Virus record (IMG/VR): IMGVR_UViG_3300008262_000001 | Source: a virus | Taxonomy: Duplodnaviria > Caudoviricetes | DNA: 64,000 nt | Reading direction: 5' to 3' (one strand) | Shown: piece after piece, positions 13,746 through 64,000 of the stretch | How the letters are laid out: every line of letters begins with the position of its first letter | Position numbering within the stretch: position 1 is the first letter of the stretch | Program-made: the position numbers and the translations under genes | Notes under the pieces: model-generated | Databases searched by the model: none | Seen by the model: only the letters and a program-made list of their open reading frames with translations | What the model was told of the DNA's origin: nothing

Positions 13746-14510
13746 ATGGAGAATCTTGCGTCTATAGAAGAGTTCTTAAATGAGAACAAAATCTTCTTCA
13801 CCCCTCAACAAATACAGGAATCTTTGGATTATCTAAACTCAGAAGATCCTGTATTATTAGAGGCTTGGTATAATACTATTTTAGATTTTGCTGCTTTAAT
13901 TCCAGGTGTGGGATCAATAGCAGAAGGTATCAACTTAGTCTCTTATGCTAAGCAAGGTGAGTATCTTCTTGCAGGTCTCTGTGCAATCGGCCTGATTCCG
14001 ATTTTTGGTCAATATATTGGAGCTGGTGGAACTTTATTAATAAAAGCTCTGGGTAAAGGTTCAACAATAGGTAAGGGAATTTTGAAACCACTAGTTAATC
14101 TAGTAGCTAAATTCTTCCCAAAAATTGTTGCTTTCTTCAAAAGCTCTAAATTTCTTTCTAAATTTTCAGGGATTTCCCCATTCATTGGAAAAATGCTTGG
14201 ATCTTTGAAAAATTTCGTCACAAGTGGAGGTGCTAAGTTAGCAAATTTAGCAAAAGACGCATCAAAAATCAAAAGCCTTAAAAGAGAAGCTAGAAATCTT
14301 AAGCAAGGAGTGAAAATAACAGATTGGGTGTTTGGATCCAATGACAAACCACAAACCGGAGGATTTGCTCAACAACCGCAATATCAAATTCCAGTTCCTA
14401 AAGATGCTTATATGTCTTATCAAGGAGTTCCTCTTCAGAACATTAGACCATATACAGACATGGAAATTTCACAAGCTGAAATGGCTCAGAACTGGGAGCA
14501 ATACCTATAA
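13746..14510 (+). CDS. Late protein with pre-toxin (PT-TG/Rhs-like) region and CTS-like N-terminus
   Basis: LDFAALIPGVGSIAEGINLVSYAKQGEYLLAGLCAIGLIP; N-term MENLASIEEFLNE; GAATATATA at 13725-13733. Confidence 0.6.
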   Translation: MENLASIEEFLNENKIFFTPQQIQESLDYLNSEDPVLLEAWYNTILDFAALIPGVGSIAEGINLVSYAKQGEYLLAGLCAIGLIPIFGQYIGAGGTLLIKALGKGSTIGKGILKPLVNLVAKFFPKIVAFFKSSKFLSKFSGISPFIGKMLGSLKNFVTSGGAKLANLAKDASKIKSLKREARNLKQGVKITDWVFGSNDKPQTGGFAQQPQYQIPVPKDAYMSYQGVPLQNIRPYTDMEISQAEMAQNWEQYL

Positions 14511-14515
14511 AAAAT

Positions 14516-14541
14516 AAAACCCCGGATATCCGGGGTTTTTT
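14516..14541. terminator. Bidirectional intrinsic terminator
   Basis: AAAACCCCGG-ATAT-CCGGGGTTTTTT between convergent genes. Confidence 0.85.
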
Positions 14542-14555
14542 GTGAGATCTTGTTT

Positions 14556-14616
14556 GCTTAACGTGTAATATAATGCACGAAAACACGAGATTTGCGCATT
14601 TTAAAACACGTTATAA
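14556..14616 (-). mobile_element. Isolated integron attC-like (59-be-like) site
   Basis: Minus strand: TTATAAC-5 nt-TTAAAATG-21 nt-CATTATA-6 nt-GTTAAGC, 61 bp, 3 nt after the stop of 14620..15438. Confidence 0.5.
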
Positions 14617-14619
14617 AGC

Positions 14620-15438
14620 TTAAAACTTTTCTCCGCAGTCTGGACAGAATTTCCAAGAATCCTTTTTGATCCTGTTACCACAACCAGTGCAGTAGTTTCT
14701 GAGTTTTTCAATTTCTACTGGTTTACAAGACTCTGGCGTCAATCGATAAGATATGCTATTCGAAGCAAATCCACTATAGTTGCCAAATGTTTGAGTCATT
14801 GATTGTTCACTAGATTCACCCTTTTCAACTTTGCCTGTTTCAATGGAGCTATTAGAAGCATTCGAACCCTTAATATTAGATTCTCCAACTGAAGGTGAAG
14901 TGAAACAGCTTACATTGTTAACAGTCGTTCCACCAAAGGAAATAGGGTTTCCTGAAATACCAGAATATCCAATATTTTCTGATGTTAGGGTATTAGTTGT
15001 TAATCCCCCAGTGTATGTAAAATATGATCCTGGTAGGTTTGTTGTATAACTAGGATAAACAGTGAAATATCCAGTGGTTGAATTCTCTGGATAAAAGCTA
15101 ATCTCGACTAAACCATTATTAACTATCGCATTAAGAGCTTCATTACTGTTTTCAATTTCATATGTTTCAAAAACAAATTTGTTATTTGAGTCAATGAATC
15201 TTTCGAGGTAAACTCTTTGTCCTGGTTTAAGAACAATACCAGAATTAGAAATTTGTTTTCCATCGATACTGATCTTAGCAAGATAGTTGATCGTGTTTGG
15301 ATTGAAGAGCTCGATCTCAAACCTTTGTCCATCTTTTAGATAAACTGCATTTCCGTAAATTTTAGATCTGTTACGGTTTGTTGTGATGTGGGCGGTACAA
15401 GATCCATACCCGCCAGTACTTGACGTTGTTAAATTCAT
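14620..15438 (-). CDS. Hypothetical protein with C-terminal double CxxC zinc ribbon
   Basis: CTGC...CPDC at the C-terminus; Ser/Thr/Gly-rich linker. Confidence 0.75.
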   Translation of the reverse strand: MNLTTSSTGGYGSCTAHITTNRNRSKIYGNAVYLKDGQRFEIELFNPNTINYLAKISIDGKQISNSGIVLKPGQRVYLERFIDSNNKFVFETYEIENSNEALNAIVNNGLVEISFYPENSTTGYFTVYPSYTTNLPGSYFTYTGGLTTNTLTSENIGYSGISGNPISFGGTTVNNVSCFTSPSVGESNIKGSNASNSSIETGKVEKGESSEQSMTQTFGNYSGFASNSISYRLTPESCKPVEIEKLRNYCTGCGNRIKKDSWKFCPDCGEKF

Positions 15439-15533
15439 AAATTTTTTGTTATTTAATTTTTGCCCCTTCCTTTGTGTCCATTTCTGAAAACTCTACGGTT
15501 TGTTGACCGGGAAGTGACTAGAAAAAATCTAGT
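15439..15533 (-). promoter_or_regulatory. Structured 5' leader RNA candidate
   Basis: Stems ACTAGA/TCTAGT, GTC-A-CTTCC/GGAAG-G-GGC and CGGT/ACCG between promoter and ATG. Confidence 0.4.
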
Positions 15534-15538
15534 TCTAA

Positions 15539-15566
15539 TTTATATATGGATGGCTTCTAAAGTTTC
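15539..15566 (-). promoter_or_regulatory. GAAAC-N17-TATAAA promoter
   Basis: GAAAC 15566-15562, TATAAA 15544-15539. Confidence 0.6.
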
Positions 15567-15580
15567 AAAAATGAAGTGAC

Positions 15581-15931
15581 CTATTTTTGCTTCTTAGGTC
15601 TTCCTCTTTTTGGCTCTGTACTTTGCTTAGAAGATGCTGAGTCTTTTTTCTTAGCAGGTTTCTTCTTCTTTCTTTTTATTACAACTATTTCATCAACATC
15701 ACCTTCATCTTTAGTGACCTTAGACCCTGAAGACTTCTTATTAGTATACTTTGCAACAAACTGCTTGGTTTTACTTTCCTCTATGTTGACTGGCTCATCC
15801 TCAATGTGTATAACTTTAGGCTGACATCTTTCACATCTACCGCAACAACATCCAGTGGGACAGTTGCAATAAAATTTAGGCTCTTCTTTTTTACCAAAAA
15901 GATTTTTGAAAAAATTTACAATAGCGTTCAT
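15581..15931 (-). CDS. Hypothetical protein, Cys cluster and Lys-rich tail
   Basis: CNCPTGCCCGRCERC; basic C-terminus. Confidence 0.6.
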   Translation of the reverse strand: MNAIVNFFKNLFGKKEEPKFYCNCPTGCCCGRCERCQPKVIHIEDEPVNIEESKTKQFVAKYTNKKSSGSKVTKDEGDVDEIVVIKRKKKKPAKKKDSASSKQSTEPKRGRPKKQK

Positions 15932-15947
15932 AAAATATTTTTTCTAT

Positions 15948-16754
15948 CTATCCTTTTTGCTTAGACTTCTGTGTTTCTTCCTCGTCTTGTGGCTGAATCT
16001 CACTGGGAGCAGCTGGATTTTCAGAATTAATAATTAAGTCTTGGATGTATTCAAGTGGTTTCTTAATACCATAAATTCCTGGCTCAGCTAATGCACCAGT
16101 AAAGTTCCCAAGTGAACCTTTTTGACTATCAGTCATTTCATTTTCTGACTTGAAAATTTGATCTATATAATCGTAATAGTCCTTTTTGTTTTTGCTCAAG
16201 TTCGATGCAAATCCTTTGAAAAGATCTGGGTTTTTTTCAATCATAAACCTAGGAAAATTCCATTCCCAATCTTTTTTAATTATTTCCGGATATAAAGTCA
16301 AAGCAGCAAAATCACCAGCTGTGATAGGTCTTTGTAATTTCATTCTTTCAATCCAAGTTTTATAATAGGAACAAACAAGGTCAAGCTGATCAATATTGGA
16401 AAGTTGTAAAACGTCTTGTGGAGTATAGTTCTTTCCGGTTTCCGGATTTACCATGTTTTTTAAAACCTCAGGATAAAAAGAAAGTAAACCTACTGCTCCA
16501 GTAGACTTGTCAGTCTTTTTAGGATCAAAATCACTTTCGTGAAATATAGTGTGGAGTAACCAAACTGGGTCTATTCCCAAGTCCTTAGAAATAGTAACTA
16601 GTTTTTTTAAGAATTCTTGTCGATTTTCTTTGATGTGTTCAGAATATGGAAGAGCAACAACGGTCTGTTCCATGTAAGAGTCAGGTTCCATTTTTTGAAC
16701 CCTAATACTTTCCGATAATCTTTTAAAATCCTGAAATTTTTGGATGTGATTCAT
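15948..16754 (-). CDS. Lysozyme-fold lytic transglycosylase-like late protein
   Basis: IFHESDFDP...GAVGLL SLT-like motif; CTS-like N-term; GATATATA 16762-16769. Confidence 0.65.
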   Translation of the reverse strand: MNHIQKFQDFKRLSESIRVQKMEPDSYMEQTVVALPYSEHIKENRQEFLKKLVTISKDLGIDPVWLLHTIFHESDFDPKKTDKSTGAVGLLSFYPEVLKNMVNPETGKNYTPQDVLQLSNIDQLDLVCSYYKTWIERMKLQRPITAGDFAALTLYPEIIKKDWEWNFPRFMIEKNPDLFKGFASNLSKNKKDYYDYIDQIFKSENEMTDSQKGSLGNFTGALAEPGIYGIKKPLEYIQDLIINSENPAAPSEIQPQDEEETQKSKQKG

Positions 16755-16770
16755 TACATCCTATATATCC

Positions 16771-17565
16771 CTATATGTTTTTAGCAAGCATTGGTTTTTC
16801 ACTTGCCCATGCGTGTAAGGATGTTATGTGCATTGTTAGAGTTCCTGGTTTTACATTTTTCCAGGTTTCTGGATCTTCTTGTTGCAGTTGTTCAATGAGC
16901 CAAAATAATTTTCTAGCACAAAGGTAAATGTCATCTCTGAAATGTCTGAAGAAATCACAAGATCTTATGTAATATACAACATGCACCCAATCAAATCTTC
17001 TTATGAAATGATAGCCAATAGTGCAAGGAACTCTTTCACCGTGGACTGATCCTGTATCTTCAGGAAACCAGATAGGAAGAAAAGCTTGTCTTGTAAAAGG
17101 CTCTTTTTTCATTAGATCGACAACATCTTTGAAATCACCATATTCATATCTAATGCCCATCATCTTATCCGAATCTAGACCTTTTTCTATCTCCCCATAT
17201 TTTGGCCAAATTCTTTCTGGATAAGTGTGTGAGAATTTTTCAAGGCCTCCAAACTCCGCATTATTTTTCTGAGCATAAGGCCATCTCTCGTGTGATGGAG
17301 GGGGATTCAAAGGAATACCACTAACCCTCTCTTCAAAATGTTCATCAGCCCAAGCAACATTAGGCTTAATTTGGTCTTTTAACCCCTCCAAATCCGTCGT
17401 TATTTGACAACTAAAAGAATGATTAAGAATTTCAATCATTGCATACTTAGGATCACTTTTAATGTCCTTAGCTTGCCATTTTTCTGTGTGGACAACATAA
17501 GAAAGATCATTCATCTGTTGAGCTGTCCAACTAATAGCATTTTTAAAGTTACCAAATTTTTTCAT
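16771..17565 (-). CDS. Divergent thymidylate-synthase-family enzyme, predicted dCMP (hydroxy)methylase type
   Basis: VPCT catalytic Cys; RSCDFFRHFRDD has Asp at the ThyA Asn177-equivalent position. Confidence 0.7.
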   Translation of the reverse strand: MKKFGNFKNAISWTAQQMNDLSYVVHTEKWQAKDIKSDPKYAMIEILNHSFSCQITTDLEGLKDQIKPNVAWADEHFEERVSGIPLNPPPSHERWPYAQKNNAEFGGLEKFSHTYPERIWPKYGEIEKGLDSDKMMGIRYEYGDFKDVVDLMKKEPFTRQAFLPIWFPEDTGSVHGERVPCTIGYHFIRRFDWVHVVYYIRSCDFFRHFRDDIYLCARKLFWLIEQLQQEDPETWKNVKPGTLTMHITSLHAWASEKPMLAKNI

Positions 17566-17582
17566 ACTGTTTATCTCATCCT

Positions 17583-17610
17583 ATTATACCAGATCTAAAG
17601 GTTCTGTTTC
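17583..17610 (-). promoter_or_regulatory. GAAAC-N17-TATAAT promoter
   Basis: GAAAC 17610-17606, TATAAT 17588-17583. Confidence 0.6.
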
Positions 17611-17611
17611 T

Positions 17612-18676: not shown

Positions 18677-18774
18677 CTTGGGTTTTATCTTTTTAGATCT
18701 TTTACTAAAAAGATTTCTAATATGGATAACTCTATTTAGAAATAGAAATACGATATATACAATAAAAAATTAGG

Positions 18775-19512
18775 ATGAAAAATATACTCCATTTTGATAA
18801 GTTTGTAAACGAGGGCTTTAAAGAAGGCGCAAGAAAATTTTTATATGGCCACGAAACCCAAGAAAAAGAGCAAATGGCTGAGCAAGATTTTATGAAGGCT
18901 TTAGACCAATTAGAGGTTTTGGTAAATGCTCAACCCGATAGATATTTCAATGGCTACAATTGGCCAGCAATGAAAACATCATTAATGAATCAAGCTGCTG
19001 AAAACAGATTCAGAGGTGGTATAGATGTTAGACCTAGCATGAACAGTGATAAACTATTTATTGTTTACAAAGAAGGTTTAAGTGGATTACAAATGTTGGC
19101 AGTAGCAGCAGCTGGTGCTATGCAATCTTATCAGTCAAAAGCTCAGTACGAGAATAAGAATGGAGGTGTAAAAGAAGGTTTTATGTCAGGTGCAAGAAAA
19201 TTTGTCACTGGATATGAAACTAAGGAAGAGGAAATGAAAGCTCAAACTGAATTCATGGAAAACTTAGAAGCAGTTGAAGCTTTAGTAATGGCTAATCCTT
19301 CTGAGTATTTTGCAGGAGAAAATTGGCCAAAATACAAAATGGATTTAATGGATCAAGCTAAGGAAAATAAATTCAGAGGAGGATTACAAGTAGGTTACTC
19401 AGCAAGTGGTAATTCTGACAAACAGTTCGTCATTTACAAGCCTGGTTTAACTGGTTTAGAAATCATTGCTCAAGGTGCAGCAGAAAGAACTGCAAATCCG
19501 TTGGGAAAATAA
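18775..19512 (+). CDS. CTS-like late protein made of two ~115-aa tandem repeats
   Basis: EGFKEGARKFLYGHET... and EGFMSGARKFVTGYET... repeats; GATATATA 18752-18759. Confidence 0.75.
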   Translation: MKNILHFDKFVNEGFKEGARKFLYGHETQEKEQMAEQDFMKALDQLEVLVNAQPDRYFNGYNWPAMKTSLMNQAAENRFRGGIDVRPSMNSDKLFIVYKEGLSGLQMLAVAAAGAMQSYQSKAQYENKNGGVKEGFMSGARKFVTGYETKEEEMKAQTEFMENLEAVEALVMANPSEYFAGENWPKYKMDLMDQAKENKFRGGLQVGYSASGNSDKQFVIYKPGLTGLEIIAQGAAERTANPLGK

Positions 19513-19530
19513 AATATTTACAAAATTTCG

Positions 19531-19556
19531 AAAGGCATCTTAGGATGCCTTTTTTT
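19531..19556. terminator. Bidirectional intrinsic terminator
   Basis: AAAGGCATC-TTAG-GATGCCTTTTTTT. Confidence 0.85.
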
Positions 19557-19995: not shown

Positions 19996-20055
19996 ACTGT
20001 AAATATATGGATTTATCTATAATAAAAAAATTATTTCCAATTTTTGTACAAAAAT

Positions 20056-20541: not shown

Positions 20542-20644
20542 GATAATTTTAGTTTTTGTTCTTGGACTAGTTTCAAGTATTTATCCTTTGTGAGGGTCAA
20601 CGAAATAATAAACTTTGAGGAATATATAAAAGAAAAAAGACGAG

Positions 20645-22030
20645 ATGGTATCTAAAAAGGTGTTTAGTTTTATAGAATTCGTAAACGAAAACTACAACAA
20701 TCAAGACTTACTAAATGAAGAAAAAGAAGCATATGTCCCTTCAAAAGAGGATATAATGAAGATTTTGGAAATTCAGCAAAAAATTGGACAAAACTATAAG
20801 AAGGTTAAGGGAGAAAAACAGTTTGAAAAAGGAGGTAAAACAAACAAACAAGTTTGGGCATCATTAGATGTTTTCAATTCATTAGATGCCACTTTACAAG
20901 AATCTGCAATTAAAGATATTCAAAAAGCTTTTGGTAAAAAAAGCATAAGTCAAAAGACTTTTGAATCAGTTCTCAAAATGTTCGAAGAATCTGCAAATGG
21001 AGGGTCAATTTCCTACACAGTAAAATACTCAGGTAACAACCAAAGTATCTATGCAATTGTTACAAAGCAAACTATCGAAAAGGAAGAGCCTTCCAAAAAA
21101 ACAGAAACTAAACCCCCGGTTGAATCAGAAAAAATAGTCCTGATAGATCCTTTGAAAACTTCTTATTTTTTCAAAAACAACATGTACGAAATTAAGGAAG
21201 ATAATCTAGGGGAAACATTTGTTGATGTTGAATACACAAAACAGGTTTTAGATTTGATAGACGAAAAAATAGCCGAAGGCTACCAATCTTACCAAATAGA
21301 TAAAGCTGGAGGGATCACAAAAATTTCTATAAGTGCTTCATGCTCAAGATACAGAAACAGAGGTATTTCAGAATCTCTATCGTGGGCAGAATTAGCTTAC
21401 AAAAGAGTTGGTATCTTTTCTAAGTATATCAAAGCCTCGGCTGAGAAGATATCGGAAAATGACAAAGAATTTGTTGATAAGATTTTATCAGTAATTGAAC
21501 TGGAATATTTTGGGTCTAACGGAGATGGAACATCAGGACCAGATCCAAATAAAGATGACAAAGGTGCATCAGTAAGAAAAGGATATTACATCCAAAAAGG
21601 TAACAAAGCTGAATTTGTTGACTCTAAAGGTACAGACCTAACTATGATTAATGTTGTAGATGTAACTACTGGAGAAAATGCAATTCCTGTGCTAGGAGAA
21701 AAACCTAAACAAGTTAAAGCAAAAAATGTTGATGGAACTGATATAGATAAAGCTCCGGCAAATCCTAAAGATTACGATCCATTCAGATATTTCCAAATAG
21801 AAATGGAGGGTCAATTTGTTAAGACAAAAGAAACAGAAACCCTTCCTGAAGAAGAACCACCTGTAATTACTGTTACTGAGAAATATAAAATTGCTATTTC
21901 TTTTCCAGTAAAAATTAAGAATAGCTCATTCATTAAATTACCAAGAAGATCTAAAAATAAAACTAAAACTTACAGTCCTCCCAAAGGAGGTGGAAAAAGA
22001 AGAGCAGTTCCTTGCCCTATATGGGATTAA
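20645..22030 (+). CDS. CTS-like late hypothetical protein
   Basis: N-term MVSKKVFSFIEFVNE; GAATATATA 20620-20628. Confidence 0.7.
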   Translation: MVSKKVFSFIEFVNENYNNQDLLNEEKEAYVPSKEDIMKILEIQQKIGQNYKKVKGEKQFEKGGKTNKQVWASLDVFNSLDATLQESAIKDIQKAFGKKSISQKTFESVLKMFEESANGGSISYTVKYSGNNQSIYAIVTKQTIEKEEPSKKTETKPPVESEKIVLIDPLKTSYFFKNNMYEIKEDNLGETFVDVEYTKQVLDLIDEKIAEGYQSYQIDKAGGITKISISASCSRYRNRGISESLSWAELAYKRVGIFSKYIKASAEKISENDKEFVDKILSVIELEYFGSNGDGTSGPDPNKDDKGASVRKGYYIQKGNKAEFVDSKGTDLTMINVVDVTTGENAIPVLGEKPKQVKAKNVDGTDIDKAPANPKDYDPFRYFQIEMEGQFVKTKETETLPEEEPPVITVTEKYKIAISFPVKIKNSSFIKLPRRSKNKTKTYSPPKGGGKRRAVPCPIWD

Positions 22031-23382: not shown

Positions 23383-24786
23383 ATGGAAAAAAACATTCTC
23401 AGATTTAGTAGCTACTTGGAAACACTTAGCGGAACAATCAATGAAAGCGAAACTTCAATCAAAACAATTTCACAAATAATCTCTGCTTACACTAAACTTT
23501 ATATGTTTCTCGTTTCAAAGTCTCCTAATTACAAAGATGTAGTTACTGATTTGATTGAGGTTAACGAAGAAAAAGACCCAGCTAAAAGAGGTGAGAAAAT
23601 GGCCGCTATGCTTAACAAGGTAGCTGAAACTGTTGATGCTAAGTATGCAGATGTTAAAACTGGTATTAAAGATCTTGCTAAGAAAATTGGGGATTTATTT
23701 ACTTCAGTTGCATCAAGTGAAGATGCTAAGAGTAAGAAAGAGGTAATAGACACAGCAATAGCTACACAAATATTCGGATATAGAGATATTGCTAAAAAAG
23801 AAGGAACTAACGAAAATATTCAAGGATTAGGTAAAAACCACGTTCAAATGTTTGAGCAGTTCACTTACCCTCTTCTATTCGAAAAGAAAACATTTGAAGA
23901 TGAAAGAGAGGATTTGGTTCAACAAATGAAGCCAACCTACACTGAAATGCAGCTTCAGAAAACTAATCCTAGTACAGAAACACTTAAAGCTAAAGCTGAA
24001 GAAGTGGTAAAAAGATTTGATGAAATTACCAAGCTTCTGAAAACTGAAGAAGAGTGGGAAAAAATGAAAAACAAAAAAGCTAGAAAAGAAAAGATTAAGG
24101 AACTGGGTGAAGAAATAGCTAAAACATCTGAAGAGGTTAGTAAAATACAAAAAGATGAGCTTTTCAAAATTGGTATTGAAAAGAAAACCGCTGAAGACTT
24201 ATCTAGCGTGATAACTGGAATAGCAGAACTTGAGAAAAAAGCTAAAGTCGTTGATGATGCAGTTTTAGCTAAAGCAGGAAGAGACACATTTCATTCTTCT
24301 CTAAAAGTTGGTGATACAGTTAAATACAAAAAAGATGATGGAACTGAAGCTGAGGGGGAAATCAGTAAAATAGTAGGTATAGGAGACGAGGCTAAATACA
24401 CCTTTAAAGATAAGGAAGGAAATCTTTTTGCTAAAACAGGGGATCAGATTATCTCAAAGGTCGAAAAAACAGAAGACAAAAAAGAAGAAGAGAAAAAAGA
24501 GTCTACTTTAAAATTAGAAAAAACGATCAAAGCAACTGGATCTTCACCAACAGGTGAAAATCTAGAACTAACCAAAAAGGTTTTCTCTTTGATATATGAT
24601 AAATTTACTGATAATAAAGAAATATCAGCTATGGAAGAATGGAAAAAATCCAACTTCGGCAAAACTAGTAAATTCTTCATAGGACCAAGCAGAACAGCAG
24701 TCATTAAAGCTATCAAGAAAGAGTATGGTTTAGAAGCAAAAAATGGAGATATCACCCCAGAATTGGTTCAAAAACTATCAGCATAA
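23383..24786 (+). CDS. CTS-like late coiled-coil protein with KOW-like motif
   Basis: MEKNILRFSSYLE; LKVGDTVKYK; GATATATA 23355-23362. Confidence 0.7.
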   Translation: MEKNILRFSSYLETLSGTINESETSIKTISQIISAYTKLYMFLVSKSPNYKDVVTDLIEVNEEKDPAKRGEKMAAMLNKVAETVDAKYADVKTGIKDLAKKIGDLFTSVASSEDAKSKKEVIDTAIATQIFGYRDIAKKEGTNENIQGLGKNHVQMFEQFTYPLLFEKKTFEDEREDLVQQMKPTYTEMQLQKTNPSTETLKAKAEEVVKRFDEITKLLKTEEEWEKMKNKKARKEKIKELGEEIAKTSEEVSKIQKDELFKIGIEKKTAEDLSSVITGIAELEKKAKVVDDAVLAKAGRDTFHSSLKVGDTVKYKKDDGTEAEGEISKIVGIGDEAKYTFKDKEGNLFAKTGDQIISKVEKTEDKKEEEKKESTLKLEKTIKATGSSPTGENLELTKKVFSLIYDKFTDNKEISAMEEWKKSNFGKTSKFFIGPSRTAVIKAIKKEYGLEAKNGDITPELVQKLSA

Positions 24787-24887: not shown

Positions 24888-25172
24888 ATGAAACACATAA
24901 GAAAATTTGGAAATTTTGGAACCAAGATTAACGAGGGGTTCTGGAATAGTATTTTCGGAAATCCTACTATTGATGATGCTGCACAAGACTCAATGAAGGG
25001 CCAAGGATGGAGTCACAGAGGAAAAGAAGAGGATGAACAAAATTATATTATGTTCCAAGGACAGAAATTCTATCCTGACCAAATAGAATATGATGATGCT
25101 TACTCAACTAAGCCTATTCCTAGAATTGAGAACGGAAAGCTAATTGTAGCTAATCCTTCTTGGAATATGTAA
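24888..25172 (+). CDS. CTS-like small late protein
   Basis: MKHIRKFGNFGTKINEG; GATATATA 24863-24870. Confidence 0.7.
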   Translation: MKHIRKFGNFGTKINEGFWNSIFGNPTIDDAAQDSMKGQGWSHRGKEEDEQNYIMFQGQKFYPDQIEYDDAYSTKPIPRIENGKLIVANPSWNM

Positions 25173-26689: not shown

Positions 26690-27034
26690 TTAAACTTCCT
26701 CGATTAGAACTTTCTTAAGATCGTATCCTGTTGGGATATCTGAAGATTTTTCGTAGTAACCAATAATTGAATACTGTTTTCCGTCTGAACTAGAATCTGG
26801 AACCATCTCCATTTTGCTAACCATTGATCCTCCAGTGTATTCTGGTTCTAATGCACCACCTATTTCGATTGTTGTAGGCATGCCTTCAGAATTTTCAAAA
26901 TTTACAAAGTAGTTTCCCTCGGTATAAGCATCACCTTGGGTGATGTCGGTAGATTCAGCTTCAAAGTGAACTGGAGTAGTTTCAACTGGCATGGTTTCAA
27001 AACCATAATCTTCGTATATTTTTAAATGCCTCAT
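26690..27034 (-). CDS. CTS-like small late protein
   Basis: MRHLKIYEDY; GATATATA 27045-27052. Confidence 0.7.
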   Translation of the reverse strand: MRHLKIYEDYGFETMPVETTPVHFEAESTDITQGDAYTEGNYFVNFENSEGMPTTIEIGGALEPEYTGGSMVSKMEMVPDSSSDGKQYSIIGYYEKSSDIPTGYDLKKVLIEEV

Positions 27035-30553: not shown

Positions 30554-31297
30554 ATGATAAAGAGGTTTGCAGATTATCTTAATGAATCACAAGGAATGAA
30601 GCCTGAAGACTTTGATCTAGATACAAGATTTGACTGGGTTCCTGAGATTATGGACAAAATAGAAAAAGTAGTTTTAAAAGCTGAAAAAATCCAAAAAGAC
30701 TACTCATATAATGGCAGGAAAAATTCAGATTCTTTTGAATTTAACATCAAGACTAGAACTTGGCCAGAATTTGAGAAGCTCCGGAAAACATATAATGTTG
30801 ACCTTGATTACATCTATCAAATGTGGGATACTTTTCTTTCTGACAATCTTCAAATACAAGCGGACGATATAATTGACTCATCTAGATTTTTTGAGGCCTG
30901 GAGTCAAGCGGGGAGAAGTGGAGGTTGGCTTTTTCTCAAATATAGGGATTACTTATTTGATGAACCCGAAGATTGGATCCAAGAAAGAGTAAATCATCTA
31001 AACGACCTGACCGAAGAAATCAGCGAAGAGGATTTTGAGCTTTATCAAGAGCTTAAACAAGCATCCAATCCAGCATATAGATTTCTAAGAAGAATAGGAA
31101 CTGAACCGGTATCACAAGACATAATATCTGCTGAAGAGGAAAGCAACAATGTTAAAGTTATTCTTGATGGATATTACAAGAGATTAGTTTTTTTAGAAAA
31201 AGAGCTTGAGAAGGTTAAAAATAGAATTGATACTTTTTGGGAAGATGTAGAAGTGGATTTCGAGCAATTCTTGGAGTCAAATATCCAACAAGATTAA
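30554..31297 (+). CDS. CTS-like late hypothetical protein
   Basis: MIKRFADYLNES; GATATATA 30541-30548. Confidence 0.7.
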   Translation: MIKRFADYLNESQGMKPEDFDLDTRFDWVPEIMDKIEKVVLKAEKIQKDYSYNGRKNSDSFEFNIKTRTWPEFEKLRKTYNVDLDYIYQMWDTFLSDNLQIQADDIIDSSRFFEAWSQAGRSGGWLFLKYRDYLFDEPEDWIQERVNHLNDLTEEISEEDFELYQELKQASNPAYRFLRRIGTEPVSQDIISAEEESNNVKVILDGYYKRLVFLEKELEKVKNRIDTFWEDVEVDFEQFLESNIQQD

Positions 31298-32160: not shown

Positions 32161-32415
32161 TTAATAATTCGAAGGAAGCATACCCGCTTCATAACGGCTT
32201 TTGCCGTTCTTAAGAAGGAATTCAAGCTCTATCCACTGGTTTTTAGTCAACCTTTTTTTACTTGTGACTTTATCCCAAAGACTAGAAAAGAATTTATTTG
32301 TGCGGTATTTGAAATGCAAAAAATCCCAAAGTCTTTGATAATAAGCAACTTCAGAATCAGAGAAATCCTTGTATTTTGATTGTCCCGAATTTTCAAAGAG
32401 TTTGATGTGTTTCAT
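32161..32415 (-). CDS. CTS-like small protein
   Basis: MKHIKLFENS; ATGA overlap with upstream gene. Confidence 0.7.
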   Translation of the reverse strand: MKHIKLFENSGQSKYKDFSDSEVAYYQRLWDFLHFKYRTNKFFSSLWDKVTSKKRLTKNQWIELEFLLKNGKSRYEAGMLPSNY

Positions 32416-32846
32416 GTTAAACCTAATATTTTCGGAGAAAGCTCATAAAAGTTAGAAAGAAAGTCATGAGCCAAAGCTTGATTGATTTCTACTAATTCTA
32501 TACCATCTTCCCAGTCTCTCAGACCTTTTCCTATCTGTAAATTTTTGATGTTGTTATTTACAAACTGTACCATGTCCTCATCATCGGGATCATAATTTTC
32601 CCAATCATATTCCCAATCAGGATCTCCGTCTTCATCAGTACCATAATAGATTTTTTCAACATCTGCATATTCACCAAAATCTTTCTTATCAAAATCTGAA
32701 TAATAAAAAGCCCAAAGCTTGTTGGTCTTCTTATCTTTTAAAATCAGAAAGTCTCCTTTAGAAACACGCTTGACAAATTCGAAGGATTCAGGTCTATCGG
32801 AAGATTCATTTTCTAGAATAAAACTGCTGAACTTTTTAATTTCCAT
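32412..32846 (-). CDS. CTS-like acidic protein
   Basis: MEIKKFSSFILENES. Confidence 0.7.
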   Translation of the reverse strand: MEIKKFSSFILENESSDRPESFEFVKRVSKGDFLILKDKKTNKLWAFYYSDFDKKDFGEYADVEKIYYGTDEDGDPDWEYDWENYDPDDEDMVQFVNNNIKNLQIGKGLRDWEDGIELVEINQALAHDFLSNFYELSPKILGLT

Positions 32847-43799: not shown

Positions 43800-48743
<4,944 letters not shown>

Positions 48744-48796: not shown

Positions 48797-49552
48797 ATGA
48801 GCTACAGATTAGAAAATTTTCTAGAAAAAATATCTTCTAAAAAGAAAGTCCTTTTTTTAACAACATCCAATAGATGGGAAGGAAGTAAAGAGGTTCCAAA
48901 ATCTACACTTTTGGCAAGATCAATCAAAGAAAGAGTAAGCGCAACAACTGAGGTAAACATAATTGATGTGCCTTCTTTAAATATTTTCCCCTGCGAAGGC
49001 AACGTTTCTGGAGTAGATGGAAACAACTGTGGAATTAAAGATTCATTGCTTAAGGATTCAGAAAAAAATCCTTCAGGATTTCATAGATGTTGGGCTTCTC
49101 TCAATCACGAAGAAGACGAACTTTGGAAAATTTCTAAGGAGATGTTTGAATCGGAAGCTGTAGTTTTCTTTATCAGCGTGAGATGGGGACAAGCCAATGC
49201 TTTCTATCAAAAACTAATTGAGAGATTGAATTGGATAGAGAACATTCACTTTACTTTAGGTGAAGATAATTTTGTTTCTGATATTGAAGCTGGTTGTGTG
49301 GTGGTTGGTCAAAACTGGAACGGGGAAAATGTTTTAGAAACCCAAAAGCAGGTCTATGAATTCTATGGATTTCAGGTTCCAGATGAGCTTTCTTTTTACT
49401 GGCAATACACCCAAGATATTATGGACGAAACCCAGGAATCTTATGAGGAAGCTCCTAAAGCTTTTGTAAAAGAATTTGATCTTTCTATTTCCTCTTTAAA
49501 AGAATCTCTAAACAAAGCTTTTCAAGGCTTAAAAAGACTTTTTGATTTTTAA
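48797..49552 (+). CDS. Flavodoxin-fold NADPH-dependent FMN reductase / WrbA-like protein
   Basis: LFLTTSNR, IFPCEG...C, SEAVVFFISVRWG...QKLIERL; GAATATATA 48783-48791. Confidence 0.7.
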   Translation: MSYRLENFLEKISSKKKVLFLTTSNRWEGSKEVPKSTLLARSIKERVSATTEVNIIDVPSLNIFPCEGNVSGVDGNNCGIKDSLLKDSEKNPSGFHRCWASLNHEEDELWKISKEMFESEAVVFFISVRWGQANAFYQKLIERLNWIENIHFTLGEDNFVSDIEAGCVVVGQNWNGENVLETQKQVYEFYGFQVPDELSFYWQYTQDIMDETQESYEEAPKAFVKEFDLSISSLKESLNKAFQGLKRLFDF

Positions 49553-56218: not shown

Positions 56219-56800
56219 CTATAGAGATCCGATAGTTGAAAGGATTCTGTCTAACTCAGATTTTAGCTCAGTCTGGTTTGGAGAAGATTCTAAGATGTTA
56301 TCTGCTAAGATTGCAAGTAAAGAAACAAGTTGATCAAATTCTTTATAGTACTTCATGTTAGCATCCCTTTTGTTCAAGGAAACAAGATCGACTGTGATTT
56401 CATTTAAAAAATCTAAAGCAGTTTGGATATTTCCTCTGTACTTAAATTCCCCGTCCTCATCATTCACGCTTGTTTCCATGAAGTCCTCAATTGAGTCACA
56501 AGCGACTTGTAATTCATTTTGTGTATTTGCTGATGAACTTGATTTAGATTTTATATCCTTTACATCTTCCACACTTAATTTGGTTACTAGATCTTTTGGA
56601 ACTTTAAAATTATTGCCAGAAGAATCCAAAGGATTTAGAACCCAAAATTCTGGTGTTTCATCTATAATTTGTCCTTTGCCTCTGTAAGTGTCAACATAAC
56701 TGCCAATTTCTATCCCCTCAGTCTCATCATGAATATAATCGCCAGGATCACTTAGGAATTTATCAAGATCAAAGTTTTCAAAAATTATTAGATGCTTCAT
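56219..56800 (-). CDS. CTS-like late protein (start re-assigned)
   Basis: MKHLIIFENF; GAATATATA 56816-56824. Confidence 0.7.
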   Translation of the reverse strand: MKHLIIFENFDLDKFLSDPGDYIHDETEGIEIGSYVDTYRGKGQIIDETPEFWVLNPLDSSGNNFKVPKDLVTKLSVEDVKDIKSKSSSSANTQNELQVACDSIEDFMETSVNDEDGEFKYRGNIQTALDFLNEITVDLVSLNKRDANMKYYKEFDQLVSLLAILADNILESSPNQTELKSELDRILSTIGSL

Positions 56801-56833: not shown

Positions 56834-57898
56834 CTATAAAGAATCTAATGTTATCGTGCTTACTAAATTCTCAGCATCTTTGTGTTGGATGAGGTCCCAA
56901 ACTTTCTCTGGTGATGCTTTTTTATCTTGTGTCATTTCTAGGGCTTTTCCTGTCCAGTCTGATTTTACCGCCATGTTTAAAGCTTGCATTTTCAAAGTTG
57001 CATCTTTATTTTCCATGGCTAAACATTCTGTTACTATTGAAGTAGCCTGGTTCAGCAGATGTTTACAGCAATCTTTATATTGTGTGCTAACTGGTATATC
57101 ATGAAAGGTAAAAATATCCTCGAAGTAATTAGAAGAGACACTATATCTTAAATCAACTAAAATCGCATTACTGATGCTTTCTATAGCTTTATTTTTGTTT
57201 GCTAATACTTCATGTGAGTGATTAGCTTCTGTGTTAGCTATTAAGTCAGAATGGATTTCTATAAGGGTGTTTAATGCTTGTAGCTCCTTCGCTCCTTCGA
57301 CTCCCTCAATAGTTAATCTTACATGATCATCGTTCAAAAGTCTTGAATAATTTGTGACTGGTAAATTGATTCCAAATGCCTTAGGTAAAAACTTTATCAG
57401 TAATTCTAAAACTTGTGATGGGTGAACTGTAGGAGTGTTCAACCAAAGATTGTTCGCAATTTGAGTAACAGGAGTAATTGAATTATAGCTTAAAAAGAAT
57501 TCACCGTCTATTTTAAATTCACCAAGATATTCCAATCCTGTAACTATATCAACACCTCCTCGAACAAGAATATCACCATCAGAAAAATCGTTTGGTAAAT
57601 TGAACCTTCCCTTAGAATCAGAAACGGTTTGATTGGTGGTGCCATCAGGATATAAAAAAGTTACAGTTGAACCAGAGAGGGGAGCATCTGAAATCACACC
57701 TGCAGCAGAACCAAATCCTCCAAGGGTTGACATAGAATAATCGCCGGTATCGTTGTCACCTTCTTCGTATGAAAAGGGAATCTTCCTATCTTTTTGTGAT
57801 TCGAATAGTGACCTTTCTCTTTTCCAGATTTCAAATTTAAACCTAAGTTGATCCTCTGATAAACCTGGGTGTTTTGATCTGAAATCGCTAATTTTCAT
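56834..57898 (-). CDS. Late hypothetical protein with a prealbumin-like beta domain
   Basis: DAPLSGSTVTFLYPDG...TVSDSKGRF; GATATATA 57906-57913. Confidence 0.6.
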   Translation of the reverse strand: MKISDFRSKHPGLSEDQLRFKFEIWKRERSLFESQKDRKIPFSYEEGDNDTGDYSMSTLGGFGSAAGVISDAPLSGSTVTFLYPDGTTNQTVSDSKGRFNLPNDFSDGDILVRGGVDIVTGLEYLGEFKIDGEFFLSYNSITPVTQIANNLWLNTPTVHPSQVLELLIKFLPKAFGINLPVTNYSRLLNDDHVRLTIEGVEGAKELQALNTLIEIHSDLIANTEANHSHEVLANKNKAIESISNAILVDLRYSVSSNYFEDIFTFHDIPVSTQYKDCCKHLLNQATSIVTECLAMENKDATLKMQALNMAVKSDWTGKALEMTQDKKASPEKVWDLIQHKDAENLVSTITLDSL

Positions 57899-57923
57899 AT
57901 TAGCTTATATATCTTGAATAGGT

Positions 57924-59934: not shown

Positions 59935-60218
59935 CTTTTTATTTTAATTATTGCTTGTTCGTAATCTTTTTGCCCGATATTATAAAAATCAACATCTACT
60001 GAAACACTGGACCATTTCGGATTGACCCCCGTCCAAATCTCTTGTGAGTCCCTGTATATTATTTTACAATTCTCGATTTTGTTTCCTAAAACTTGCCTAA
60101 TTTCCAATAAGGCATTTTCAATGTCATTGGTCAAAGACTTGTTCCCAAGATTTAAATCTATCAAACTAATCACATCATCTTTTAGTTTCCAGGTATAATC
60201 ACTTTTTCCTATCCTCAT
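59931..60218 (-). CDS. Hypothetical protein
   Basis: 95 aa; TATTTTTG -7 element at 60230-60237. Confidence 0.6.
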   Translation of the reverse strand: MRIGKSDYTWKLKDDVISLIDLNLGNKSLTNDIENALLEIRQVLGNKIENCKIIYRDSQEIWTGVNPKWSSVSVDVDFYNIGQKDYEQAIIKIKR

Positions 60219-60313
60219 AGTTTTTTTTACAAAAATAGAAAACCAATTCGAAATAAAAAAAGAATACTATCAAATTGTTAGCAATTGAATGTCAGAAATC
60301 AATATATAAATGT

Positions 60314-60700
60314 ATGGATCTTCTTGATAGTGGATGGTATTATAAAGAGCCCATAGATTTCGAACATAAACAATGGGTTCTGTTCGCCTATTTACAAAAG
60401 GTTGATGATGCCTTTTATAGTCGAATTTTTTCCCCGTGGTTATTACACACAGAAAAAATCACAGATGACATGAAAATATCCCTAGGATATTTAGAGAGCT
60501 TTAAAAAGGGATTAACAAAAAAATCAATACTTTTTTCTGTCGAAGGGTTAAGTTTAATAGAGAACAAACCAGCAACTAAAGAAATAGATATAGTACAAGA
60601 AATAGTGCAATTCTCAATTCCCCTTTTAGAGCAGAGAATTGATCTAGGAAGAAAATTACACTCACAATATCCAACAATTCTATATGACAAACAACTATAA
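60314..60700 (+). CDS. Hypothetical late protein (start re-assigned)
   Basis: AATATATA at 60301-60308. Confidence 0.6.
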   Translation: MDLLDSGWYYKEPIDFEHKQWVLFAYLQKVDDAFYSRIFSPWLLHTEKITDDMKISLGYLESFKKGLTKKSILFSVEGLSLIENKPATKEIDIVQEIVQFSIPLLEQRIDLGRKLHSQYPTILYDKQL

Positions 60701-60881
60701 TGAATATTTAGAGCAGATAAAGAAGAAACTTGATGCTTTAAACAAAGCTGCAGGAGTTAATCCTCAGGAAAATATACAGATCCAAAACCACAGAAACAAT
60801 GGAATGCCTGGCAATGACATTTTCGATATGCTAGGAAACGGAGCTAAAATGTGGATGGAAAAAAATAACAATTCCAAATAA
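60684..60881 (+). CDS. Small hypothetical protein
   Basis: 65-aa ORF overlapping the upstream gene. Confidence 0.5.
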   Translation: MTNNYNEYLEQIKKKLDALNKAAGVNPQENIQIQNHRNNGMPGNDIFDMLGNGAKMWMEKNNNSK

Positions 60882-60939
60882 TGCTCAAAACATTATCGTA
60901 ACTTAATGGTCAGTTGGAATAGAATTAGAAAAAGATGAG

Positions 60940-61818
60940 ATGAGAGATTTTAAAATATCTATAAGATATACTGATCCGTCAAAAAACCTTGCTAGATATT
61001 TTGCAGAGGTAACAAAAGAGAAAATGCTTTCCGTACAAGAGGAGGCAGAACTTGCAAAACTAGCTAAAGAAGGTGATCAAGAAGCAAAAGAAAAAATTAT
61101 CAAGTCAAATCTCAGGTTTGTAATTTCAGTAGCTAAATCTTACGCATCAAGTAAATATCCAGTCGAGGATATTATTTCTGAAGGAAACAGAGGACTAATA
61201 GAAGCAATAGATAATTTTGATCCTTCTCAGGGATTTAAATTTATAAGCTATGCTGTGTGGCATATCAGAAAAAATATTCTATCTTTCTTAAATACACACT
61301 CAAGAACAATCAGACTTCCACAAAATGTGATTAGTGAAATGAGAAGGTATCAGGAAGCAGAAAACTTTTTTATAGCAGAGCATAGTAGAGAACCTTCGGT
61401 AGACGAAATCCTCAGACTTATAGACGAAAAAGGAATGAAGCCTTTTCCGTCAGCAGTGATTGAAACTATAACGAACAAACCCGTTCAGGTTTCACTAGAT
61501 TATGACACTGATGGAGAGGGAGAAAAAGCTTATTCTCCTATTAACTGGATTTCATCTGAAGAAAACACGGAGGATCGGATTTTTAAAAGAGATGAACAGG
61601 AAGCAATCCGTTTAATTTTTTCATTCTTAAAACCTTTCGAAAAGGAAATTGCTGAAATGAAATTCGGTTTAGGTGAAAGTGGAGTGGAAAAAACTTTTAA
61701 TGAAATAGGAATCCACTTTGGTAAAAGCTCCGAATGGGCAAGGGGAACCTTTCGAAAAATAGAAAGAAAAATGAGAAGAATAGCAAGATTAAAAGGAATA
61801 AAATCTAGCTCTATGTAA
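60940..61818 (+). CDS. Sigma70-family RNA polymerase sigma factor, Bacteroidota primary-sigma-like (no region 1.1)
   Basis: SNLRFVISVAKSY, DIISEGNRGLIEAIDNFDPSQGFKFISYAVW, IRLPQN, C-terminal HTH. Confidence 0.9.
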   Translation: MRDFKISIRYTDPSKNLARYFAEVTKEKMLSVQEEAELAKLAKEGDQEAKEKIIKSNLRFVISVAKSYASSKYPVEDIISEGNRGLIEAIDNFDPSQGFKFISYAVWHIRKNILSFLNTHSRTIRLPQNVISEMRRYQEAENFFIAEHSREPSVDEILRLIDEKGMKPFPSAVIETITNKPVQVSLDYDTDGEGEKAYSPINWISSEENTEDRIFKRDEQEAIRLIFSFLKPFEKEIAEMKFGLGESGVEKTFNEIGIHFGKSSEWARGTFRKIERKMRRIARLKGIKSSSM

Positions 61819-62134
61819 GTTTTACTTCTTGTATTTTAAAAGGCAATTGTTTTTTATAATAGTATAGATGGAAGAAAATGTATTCTTCCTCATTCATGTA
61901 TCCCATTGCAAATTGTCTTTTACCCCATTCAACATCTTTTCTACTTTTCAAATATTTGTGGGCAATCTCCCCGCCTTTTTCTATATCTTCTTTCAATTTA
62001 TTATTTAACTGTTTACGAATGGCTTCACATTTTCTTTTTGAAAGAGAAATTTCTTGGATCCATTCATACATTTTGTCTTTCTCATAATAACAACCCATGA
62101 TCATGTAAACAACATCAGGACTTTTTGCTTTCAT
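61811..62134 (-). CDS. Hypothetical protein (start re-assigned to MKAKS)
   Basis: Upstream in-frame region is occupied by another small ORF. Confidence 0.55.
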   Translation of the reverse strand: MKAKSPDVVYMIMGCYYEKDKMYEWIQEISLSKRKCEAIRKQLNNKLKEDIEKGGEIAHKYLKSRKDVEWGKRQFAMGYMNEEEYIFFHLYYYKKQLPFKIQEVKLT

Positions 62135-62264
62135 TTTTGAGATTAATTTTTTTCCATTCGATTCTTTTCTTCCACATTTCCTGCTTATATCCATTGGTGA
62201 AAAACCAACCAATAGACTTATCTAAAAAATAGTCTATGTAGAGCAGTGCAAGTTTGAAGTTCAT
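62115..62264 (-). CDS. 49-aa hypothetical protein (not in ORF track)
   Basis: MNFKLALLYIDYFLDKSIGWFFTNGYKQEMWKKRIEWKKINLKNESKKS. Confidence 0.5.
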   Translation of the reverse strand: MNFKLALLYIDYFLDKSIGWFFTNGYKQEMWKKRIEWKKINLKNESKKS

Positions 62265-62492
62265 AAACACAAGATTAATCAACTATCGCTCAGTAGAAAA
62301 AGAAACTTTTTAGCACTTTACTGTTAAATCATAGATGATCTTAGTTTTTACTATAATTTTTCTTATTGTAAATCAACTGATTGGGTTTCTATTGATTGAT
62401 CTTGAAAAGAGACCATATGATCCTGTAGGGTCAGTATTTTTTATAAATTTCTGGAGTGTGGTACTTCTTTGGAGATTTTTCCAAAGAAAAGA

Positions 62493-63095
62493 CTAATGCC
62501 ACCAGGCCCTCATATCACTTCCATCATATTGACTATCGAAGTCATCTGAGTTATCAAAAATTGCCTTGTAATCAGGACCTTTGATAATAGCAATGATTTC
62601 TTCCCAGTGATCTTGAGCAATTTCTTTTGATCTTCTCATCACTTTTAAATTGTGACTTTTCTCTTCAGGAAGTCCCGTATCAATCATCCTGTACGTCATA
62701 CCATCACCAGAAGGTTCCCAGACTATTTCTGTATTAATGATCGGTCCTAATTCTTTCTCTGCCAATCCCATGTAGTCATCTTTCAAGAAAATATCTAAAA
62801 GGTAAGAGAGTCTTTTCATTTTCTCAACCTTTTTATTTTTACTTACAGTTTCTTCAAACGAATATTTGTCGATATACTTTGCTATATCATCTAAGGATGT
62901 TTTTACCAAAGGAAGAATAGAATGAGCTCCATTGTAGTTATTGTAATTCCAAAGATCCTTTCTAAAAACCCAGAGATTTCTAAAAAATCTAGGCAGGTCA
63001 TATCTAAATAAATCGTAAATCTTCCAATGTGCCATTCTCCTTGAAGAAATCTTCATCAGGTTTTTCATGAAGGTGTTTGTGAATTTGAGTTCCAT
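62493..63095 (-). CDS. Hypothetical protein
   Basis: 200-aa ORF; ATATATA upstream. Confidence 0.7.
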   Translation of the reverse strand: MELKFTNTFMKNLMKISSRRMAHWKIYDLFRYDLPRFFRNLWVFRKDLWNYNNYNGAHSILPLVKTSLDDIAKYIDKYSFEETVSKNKKVEKMKRLSYLLDIFLKDDYMGLAEKELGPIINTEIVWEPSGDGMTYRMIDTGLPEEKSHNLKVMRRSKEIAQDHWEEIIAIIKGPDYKAIFDNSDDFDSQYDGSDMRAWWH

Positions 63096-63157
63096 AGTTT
63101 ATATATGACTGGGTTTAAAACGTAGGTGGGATAAATACATTACAAATATAAGAATAA

Positions 63158-64000
63158 ATGAAACACCTCAAACCAATAGAAGAGTTTATAAACGAACAAC
63201 TTTTTAGAAATGCCTATGGAAAGTTTCTAGACCTATTAGGATTGGGTGGACCAGAAGAAGTTAAAGACCCTAAACCTTCTATAGTTGGTGGTAGTGTGAG
63301 ATTTTCAGGTTCAGGTGATAAGGGTAAAAATATTCAGCTTCTTATTGACGCAATGAAAAAGCACGGGATCACAAATCCTTTCACACAAATAGCAATTCTT
63401 GGAGTAGTAGGAAAAGAAAGTGGTTACATTCCAAAAATAGAAAAAGGATACGGAAATACCTCACCGGAAAGAATTAGAAAAATATTTGGAGCAAGAGTAA
63501 ACGATCTGACAGATGCTCAAATCGATCAAATCAAGACAAATGATGAGAAATTCTTTGATCTCGTTTATGGACCAGGTGATAAAACAGGGAAGTCTCAGAA
63601 ATATGGAAATTCAGCTCCAGGAGACGGTTGGAAATTTAGAGGAAGAGGTTTCAACCAATTAACCTTCAAAGGATCATATGAAAAAATGCAAAAGTTATAT
63701 GATTCAAAAGGAAAGCTAAACAGACAAGTAAACATTGTAACAAATCCAGATTTACTTGATGATCCGGAAGTTGCAGCAGAATTTGCGGTTCTTTATTTCC
63801 TATCTAGAGCATCAAGTCCGCAAATGGCTCAAAAATTTGGTGTTGCAGATATAAACGGTTTTAAAGATCAATTCACTGCTACCAAAGCAATGACTAATGC
63901 AAATGCTGGTTGGGGTAACGATGTTACCAATGACGAAGGATTCGTACGTGCCCAACAATTTGCAGCTAATTTTTCAGTTGATCTATCTTCAGGAACCGCA
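63158..64000 (+). CDS. GH19 chitinase/lysozyme-fold peptidoglycan hydrolase with CTS-like N-terminus (runs off window end)
   Basis: Manual translation MKHLKPIEEFINEQ...VGKESG...GDGWKFRGRGFNQLT; GATAAATA 63130-63137. Confidence 0.85.
   Translation, partial: MKHLKPIEEFINEQLFRNAYGKFLDLLGLGGPEEVKDPKPSIVGGSVRFSGSGDKGKNIQLLIDAMKKHGITNPFTQIAILGVVGKESGYIPKIEKGYGNTSPERIRKIFGARVNDLTDAQIDQIKTNDEKFFDLVYGPGDKTGKSQKYGNSAPGDGWKFRGRGFNQLTFKGSYEKMQKLYDSKGKLNRQVNIVTNPDLLDDPEVAAEFAVLYFLSRASSPQMAQKFGVADINGFKDQFTATKAMTNANAGWGNDVTNDEGFVRAQQFAANFSVDLSSGTA

Follow-up and report, generated by a model that had tools for sequence, protein, structure and literature searches.

In bacteriophage T4, the internal proteins IPI, IPII and IPIII and the protein Alt carry a capsid-targeting sequence (CTS) that is removed by the prohead protease gp21 (Mullaney and Black 1996, reviewed in PMC9026906, PMC5694885, PMC3012670). 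Mutagenesis of the IPIII tag assigned residues 4 and 7 to targeting and residues 8 and 10 to processing, and the aromatic pair is needed for targeting but not for cutting (PMC9026906). The protease works inside the closed prohead (PMC5694885), and the target of the CTS is described in reviews only as 'affinity to the core' (PMC9026906, PMC5694885, PMC3012670). Inner-body or ejection proteins of phages phiKZ, 201phi2-1 and SPN3US carry propeptides (PMC5694885, PMC10052503). We analyzed a stretch of 64,000 nucleotides (nt) from IMG/VR virus record IMGVR_UViG_3300008262_000001 (Caudoviricetes), hereafter the window, which is the reverse strand of bases 62,276-126,275 in a single 174,942-bp record (35% G+C). 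Many of its genes start with a common short peptide, here called the tag, and the proteins behind it are referred to as cargo. A first-pass annotation had likened this N-terminus, on about 14 unrelated late genes, to the T4 CTS. The parallel is partly supported: the tag fits the four mapped T4 positions, the phage has an S77 protease, and the same type of site recurs in its capsid propeptide and scaffold. We consider it fairly probable that this N-terminus represents the T4 type of capsid-targeting and processing tag in much enlarged use.

The tag has the form M-(K/N)-(H/N/Y)-(I/L)-x-x-aromatic-x-x-aromatic, followed by (I/L/V)-x-E within 8-21 residues. All 12 main sites listed in the first-pass annotation proved to be ATG starts of real open reading frames (ORFs) with the N-terminus described there. 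Its two weaker sites were discarded: w48797 (genes are named by the window position of their start codon) lacks [ILVM]-x-E up to residue 26, and in w57898 the spacing does not fit. At least 10 further tagged genes were found outside the window in the same 175-kb record, one of them starting with MILNYKEFIAE. Judged by sequence, the tag appears to be used on at least 22 of the about 231 genes of the record (~10%), 12 of them in the window.

Motif discovery over all N-termini had been proposed as a check, and the tag stood out in two such analyses. The first was a leave-one-out position-specific scoring matrix (PSSM) comparison of 13 strict tags with 3,148 other ATG-initiated peptides from all six frames of the genome. 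Eleven of the 13 ranked above all 3,148 others, and the remaining two were each equalled or exceeded by one peptide. The second used a loose pattern, defined as two hydrophobic or aromatic residues at i and i+3 followed by [ILVM]-x-E, which was present in 23 of 231 N-termini versus 4.2 expected from internal positions (maximum of 11 in 200 shuffles). The tag is confined to the extreme N-terminus, as every strict match is a gene start, and candidate cuts fall at residues 8-21. The aromatic pair at i and i+3, equivalent to IPIII positions 4 and 7, is present in all accepted tags, and so is (I/L/V/M)-x-E. In ~10 tags (I/L)-x-Glu directly adjoins the aromatic pair, as in T4; in others it follows 1-4 residues later.

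Many of these genes are preceded by a heptamer, ATATATA ((G/A)ATATATA, mostly GATATATA or AATATATA). Of its 78 occurrences, 44 are correctly oriented and sit 4-24 nt ahead of a gene start. The genes behind it include those for sheath, tube, portal, a fibre and the protease as well as baseplate-region genes. From its position and by analogy with T4 TATAAATA, the box may be read as a late promoter. The statement that nearly all 14 sites follow such a box held in part: it precedes nine of the 12 strong sites and both weak ones, and three strong sites are without it. Across the genome, the box is enriched before tagged genes (11/23 versus 32/208, Fisher p = 7e-4), and several of the 'untagged-box' cases come second in an operon headed by a box. 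Where the box precedes a gene (e.g. window 13722-13733 and 20622-20630), the distance to the start codon is only 4-24 nt; the leaders of late mRNAs would thus be very short and could hardly accommodate a ribosome-binding site.

This arrangement bears on the idea that the similarity is a nucleic-acid feature, namely the translation-start context of short-leader late mRNAs or a recombination linker that moves cassettes. The proximity of the box to the ATG, the A/T-rich first codons, and the coming and going of tagged genes between relatives would fit it. However, the codons vary while the residue classes are kept: seven different codons serve the I/L position, His is encoded by CAC and CAT five times each, and the mean nucleotide identity over the tag is 59%. 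Conservation also reaches as far as residue 21, at the aromatic and Glu positions and despite indels separating them, and the peptide is missing from structural late genes that have the same box. A nucleic-acid origin is therefore very improbable, and these sequence comparisons indicate that selection acts on the peptide, not on the DNA.

Orthologs in related contigs vary in residues and spacing and keep the aromatic pair and (I/L/V)-x-Glu, even across small indels. Among 28 homologues of w20645 (to 29% identity), E11 and E15 never vary, and conservation is ~90% at F9 and F12, against a mean column identity of 44%. The tag is also kept in 30 homologues of w16754, with E15 invariant. For w63158, 376 homologue clusters were found, many of them called 'predicted chitinase' by JGI. 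The loose pattern was present in 97 of the 120 homologues listed, and in the rest of these the same peptide was recognized by eye in all but one, with Arg at the first hydrophobic position or a start called too far upstream. One homologue of w20645 (P0031) carries two tags in tandem, ..GFSNFLLTEG.. and then ..LSFVEFIGE.., as if the tag had been duplicated or added before an existing one. In the AF2 models of w20645 and w16754, the tag is a short, low-confidence, detached N-terminal helix followed by a disordered linker; in w20645 the helix spans residues 9-17. A scan of viral contigs for related loci, made with w20645, found one. In this relative (L033), the only related locus spanning the window cluster, four tagged orthologs are kept, three are missing, and two different tagged genes are present. 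Two related contigs contain 9 and 6 strict tags, respectively, and a reversed control pattern matched 0 times. The cargo set thus varies between relatives as judged from sequence, with gain and loss read from a single comparison and pattern counts because the search gave one related locus.

The proteins behind the tag had been described as unrelated, and this was borne out: once the first 22 residues were trimmed, comparing the tagged proteins with each other by BLASTP gave no E value below 0.03. The exceptions are three proteins that are alike over ~60-80 residues after the tag (w63158, g28476 and g29236) and one weakly similar pair next to the capsid gene. They would fit a set of diverged paralogues in which the N-terminus is the last remnant of common descent. 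We regard this as hardly credible, since the bodies differ in fold and size (41-467 aa), with transglycosylase, OmpA-like, GH19-like, CHAP-like and nucleotidyltransferase-like proteins among them. Moreover, the tag is the best-conserved short segment within each orthologous group, and the groups do not align with each other. In the three similar proteins (w63158, L002:11476-12222 and L002:12236-13006), the common residues (EQLFG...) are followed by GH19-like and CHAP/NlpC-like ends, and this stretch looks like a common adaptor module.

The head genes supply further evidence for a CTS-like tag. By sequence, the phage encodes a T4 gp21-type (S77) prohead protease, which forms part of a 681-aa protease-scaffold polyprotein outside the window (L007:7131-9176; genome 167131-169176). 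The N-terminal Peptidase_S77 domain scored 39.9 bits in Pfam versus a cut-off of 27. BLASTP against T4 gp21 gave E = 9e-10, with GELDHP aligned over GELNHP (GELxHP) and SSR over SSR; these motifs presumably hold the catalytic His and Ser residues of the S77 protease. A specificity for Glu is suggested by the sites themselves. The C-terminal half of the polyprotein consists of 14 tandem 14-residue units, ISYSEYLAENLDKN (Y-S-E-Y-L-A-E-N-L-D-K-N-I-S; 42-nt DNA period), each of which contains aromatic-x-x-aromatic-(L/I)-A-Glu-Asn. A Y-x-x-Y-(L/I/V)-A-E array of 6-15 units was present in 16 of 16 related contigs examined (to 35% identity). It was also found in 85 of the top 150 representatives of a family with at least 324 clusters at E up to 1e-30, with period 14 dominant. 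The P1 residue in the family arrays is Glu in 696 cases versus Asp in 27.

The capsid protein points the same way. Its propeptide end, KYCHFHSLNE/SAGAY (a slash marks the candidate cut), is invariant in close relatives and reads KYAHYHSLNE/G in the most distant. The genes just after the capsid gene start with tag-like peptides of conserved shape, MKLKRLESFSINE/G and MKITSFKKFIYE/Q. In the T4 record, IPII and IPIII start with MKTYQEFIAE, and FGSFLTE of gp23 ends at residue 65, which we take to be the known maturation cut. The commonest scaffold cores, YSEYLAE and YSEYIAE, differ from T4 YQEFIAE at two or three of seven positions. A 65-aa ORF at window 60684-60881 (+) starts with MTNNYNEYLEQ, near the scaffold unit YSEYLAE with one residue fewer before Glu; it has no late box and was not counted as tagged. 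An 886-aa (L007:4444-7104) and a 172-aa protein (L007:13194-13712) flank the head genes and have a second N-terminal motif, ..NP(I/V/L)(Y/F)ES(L/M).., which is kept in all relatives and may represent another class of protease-cut propeptide.

We propose the following course of events. By analogy with T4, the tagged proteins would be late products synthesized alongside those of the head. The tag would be a short helix, joined through a flexible linker and bearing aromatic residues at i and i+3, that docks each protein onto the prohead core. This core would be the C-terminal half of the protease polyprotein with its 14 tandem units shaped like the tag, and docking would take place on these repeats. 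After shell closure, the gp21-type serine protease would cut after Glu in (I/L/V)-x-E, chopping the scaffold to short peptides, removing the capsid propeptide at ...HSLNE/S and freeing the cargo inside the head. At infection the cargo may leave with the DNA, which is the least certain step. Its wall-active members would be a lytic transglycosylase, a muramidase of GH19-like type, an OmpA-like protein that binds the wall and, encoded outside the window, a CHAP/NlpC-like protein; the others would be small fast-changing ORFans, like the T4 internal proteins.

The presence of (I/L/V/M)-x-E in every accepted tag would also be expected if the tag were only a protease-removable propeptide, which for example keeps enzymes inactive or marks them for turnover, with no head loading and no payload. 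Several cargoes are indeed hydrolases that could need restraint. However, any substrate of a protease that works within the closed prohead, as that of T4 does (PMC5694885), must have entered beforehand, and the conserved aromatic pair is dispensable for cutting in T4 while being required for targeting (PMC9026906). Many cargoes are in addition tiny ORFans with no enzyme to restrain, and we consider this explanation unlikely.

Alternatively, the destination set by the tag could be another late structure or partner, such as the tail, baseplate, membrane or a chaperone, and not the head core. Some cargoes are predicted to be wall-active, wall-acting enzymes are usually tail-associated in myophages, and two tagged genes come after a tail-fibre-like operon. 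Yet the same motif class is found at the capsid propeptide boundary and in the scaffold repeats, tagged genes flank the capsid gene, and none of the tail or baseplate genes examined has the tag. Delivery to a structure other than the head is thus judged quite improbable.

A more specific version of the capsid-targeting reading is that the tag is a single copy of the scaffold repeat unit. Cargo would then join the core as pseudo-subunits, and one protease specificity would dismantle scaffold, propeptide and tethers. We put this forward tentatively, as a possibility that we would not expect to hold. If true, it would explain what the T4 CTS binds, and the packaged proteome of hundreds of uncultured phages would be predictable from sequence (~10% of genes, including wall-degrading enzymes). 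A sequence identity between tag and repeat is not claimed, as a scaffold-only PSSM gave weak enrichment.

Several observations weigh against capsid targeting or its scaffold-based version. A PSSM trained on the 14 scaffold units alone picked out N-termini only weakly, at 3 of its top 10 versus 0.5 expected (p about 0.01). Tag and unit share shape and a presumed protease site, not sequence, with Phe and Asn (P2) typical of the tags and Tyr and Ala of the units. In six strict tags, the sole (I/L/V)-x-E of the first 26 residues lies inside the tag, at residues 6-8. The cargo pI is mixed, not basic as in the T4 internal proteins, and no charge bias of the cargo was detected, its median pI being that of the genome. 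The role of the box is read from its position only. To our knowledge, wall hydrolases packaged in the head are without precedent among contractile-tailed phages. The annotated scaffold-protease of PTm1 is without the Y-x-x-Y-L-A-E array, and tblastn with capsid and protease found no cultured close relative, reaching only named phages at ≤43% identity.

Regarding the cargo, the first-pass annotation had named two muramidase folds, and both were recovered. w16754 (15948..16754 (-), 268 aa; start MNHIQKFQDFKRLSE/S, N-terminus MNHIQKFQDFKRLSES; box 7 nt upstream) has, as modelled, a lysozyme-like fold of the family 1 lytic-transglycosylase (SLT) type with a putative catalytic Glu-Ser motif. Its AF2 model (pLDDT 84) matched phiKZ gp144 in Foldseek with E = 8e-4 and probability 1.00, and also MltE and Slt. 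In the conserved H-E-S motif, E73 is ~90% conserved and S74 invariant in the 30 homologues; the Pfam SLT match (E = 0.009) is below cut-off. w63158 (63158..64000 (+), 284 aa, running 3 codons past the window end; start MKHLKPIEEFINE/Q, N-terminus MKHLKPIEEFINEQ; a GATAAATA variant replaces the box) is by sequence a GH19-like muramidase ('predicted chitinase') and matches the endolysin family PHROG 181 (E = 1.5e-26). Its paralogue g29236, outside the window, gave sub-threshold CHAP/NlpC matches. w20645 (20645..22030 (+), 461 aa; start MVSKKVFSFIEFVNE/N, N-terminus MVSKKVFSFIEFVNEN, second site LLNE/E) has a helical N-domain and, at residues about 155-391, a probable OmpA-like peptidoglycan-binding domain. 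In VIA, the match reached Z 8.8 (rmsd 3.7 over 119 residues), and the top 30 rows were almost exclusively of the OmpA/Pal/MotB type; Foldseek matched OmpA-like proteins at E about 0.01, and there was no Pfam match. Beside the head genes, g163696 gave weak nucleotidyltransferase matches.

Two further suggestions on the cargo fared less well. w13746 (13746..14510 (+), 254 aa; start MENLASIEEFLNE/N, N-terminus MENLASIEEFLNEN; GAATATATA box 12 nt upstream), thought to be pre-toxin-like, had no Pfam match to pre-toxin TG (PF14449) up to E 0.01 and a weak match to it in the Atlas protein-language-model search (rank 22, score 0.85). The candidate flavoprotein w48797 (48797..49552 (+), 251 aa) has a late box and does not belong to the tagged set, its FMN_red match (E = 0.006) being below the curated cut-off and its N-terminus no convincing tag. 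The other rejected gene, w57898 (56834..57898 (-), 354 aa; start MKISDFRSKHPGLSE), also has a late box. Searches of the tagged proteins against Pfam and PHROGs mostly gave no match, and the remainder (41-467 aa) is without a recognizable family.

The other tagged genes of the window are as follows. On the plus strand, w18775 (18775..19512, 245 aa; start MKNILHFDKFVNE/G, N-terminus MKNILHFDKFVNEG; box 15 nt upstream) and w23383 (23383..24786, 467 aa; start MEKNILRFSSYLETLSGTINE/S, N-terminus MEKNILRFSSYLETLSGTINES; box 20 nt upstream) are both absent from L033, and an Atlas search with w23383 gave no match. w24888 (24888..25172 (+), 94 aa; start MKHIRKFGNFGTKINE/G, N-terminus MKHIRKFGNFGTKINEG) has its box 17 nt upstream, and w30554 (30554..31297 (+), 247 aa; start MIKRFADYLNE/S, N-terminus MIKRFADYLNES) has a GATATATA box directly upstream. 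On the minus strand, w27034 (26690..27034, 114 aa, acidic; box 10 nt upstream) starts with MRHLKIYEDY, in which I-Y-E at residues 6-8 is the sole [ILV]-x-E; its ortholog in L033 starts with MKHLRIYEDY, and that of w13746 keeps I-x-x-F-L-x-E. w32415 (32161..32415 (-), 84 aa, basic; start MKHIKLFENS) lies downstream of the tail-fibre-like operon, and neither it nor w32846 (32412..32846 (-), 144 aa, acidic; start MEIKKFSSFILE/N, N-terminus MEIKKFSSFILENE) has a box of its own. For w56800 (56219..56800 (-), 193 aa; start MKHLIIFENF), the ATG at 56800 is internal to a TTG-called ORF and has a GAATATATA box upstream.

The record encodes a contractile-tail gene set with tail sheath, tail tube, two portal paralogues and a head maturation protease, and its major capsid protein is of the T4 Gp23 type (Pfam, 137 bits). 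It is probably a fragment, since related contigs reach 248 kb at an estimated completeness of 85%. By capsid protein, the closest named phages, at 30-43% identity, are the Lak megaphages (Prevotella) and those infecting Tenacibaculum, Flavobacterium, Chryseobacterium and Sphingomonas, which makes a host in Bacteroidota probable. No near-identical record turned up when 15.8 kb of the window were compared with the phage collection by megablast. No protein with a Y-x-x-Y-L-A-E array was found in the capsid neighbourhood of Lak-A1, and in MaF61 the gene order differs. Outside the window, a 530-aa HNH homing endonuclease is located between the sheath and tube genes, and the tube and portal genes each form a tandem paralogue pair (L005:3893-5485 (-), L005:5661-6822, L006:4454-7707). 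Within the window, a 1,643-aa ORF (43800-48731 (-)) is preceded by a late box and adjoins tail-fibre-like genes; the G+C content there is 42-46% versus 33-35% elsewhere.

If the tag is a loading signal, the capsid-borne proteins of a widespread uncultured freshwater phage family could be listed from their genes. Such a list would be a catalogue of candidate first-strike proteins, including wall-cutting enzymes and possible anti-defence factors. From the protease-borne array of CTS-shaped units, one may suppose that the tag co-assembles with similar units of the scaffold, a testable hypothesis for CTS targeting. Foreign proteins might also be loaded, as has been done with T4, by a compact set consisting of a polyprotein, a capsid protein and a short tag.

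Compared with described systems, the tag resembles the T4 CTS in being an N-terminal peptide of 10-20 residues on otherwise unrelated and variable cargo. The aromatic residues at i and i+3 followed by (I/L)-x-Glu, the S77 protease and a similar motif at the capsid cut (FGSFLTE-65 in T4, HSLNE here) are further likenesses. It differs in its use on ~10% of genes, versus four or five proteins in T4, and in its consensus, MKH(I/L)KxFExF..., with Asn instead of Ala at P2 and a pair-to-cut spacing that varies by 0-4 residues. The cargo here also includes wall hydrolases and is not uniformly basic, and the lineage is of a Bacteroidota type, with ≤43% capsid identity to any named phage and known here from sequence alone. 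As in the T4 core (gp22, gp67, gp68 and gp21), a protease is combined with a scaffold rich in (I/L/V)-x-E sites (7.4 per 100 aa in T4 gp22), which in T4 is processed to small peptides. Unlike in T4, protease and scaffold form one 681-aa polyprotein with a regular array of 14 x 14 residues and a CTS-shaped site per unit. No similarity of gp22 to the scaffold part was detectable by BLASTP (E = 1.4), and gp22 is without such an array. At residues 96-101, gp22 (L035:4118-4927) has EWLAEN, a hexamer shaped like the scaffold EYLAEN, with no significant overall similarity.

In phiKZ, 201phi2-1 and SPN3US, as proposed here, many head-internal proteins are cut after Glu by a gp21-related protease, their propeptides are thought to target the prohead, and paralogues have a common conserved N-terminus. 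Those propeptides are, however, mostly >100 residues long with the motif (S/A/G)-x-E, and no short tag common to unrelated proteins has been reported for them. In the literature, of which our coverage is incomplete, we found the work on T4, phiKZ and SPN3US; neither a short tag shared by many genes nor a scaffold built from repeats turned up for large phages of the Bacteroidota type. What differs from T4 is the scale (~10% of genes), the wall-active cargo, the distant Bacteroidota-type lineage and the protease-fused tandem scaffold of CTS-shaped units.

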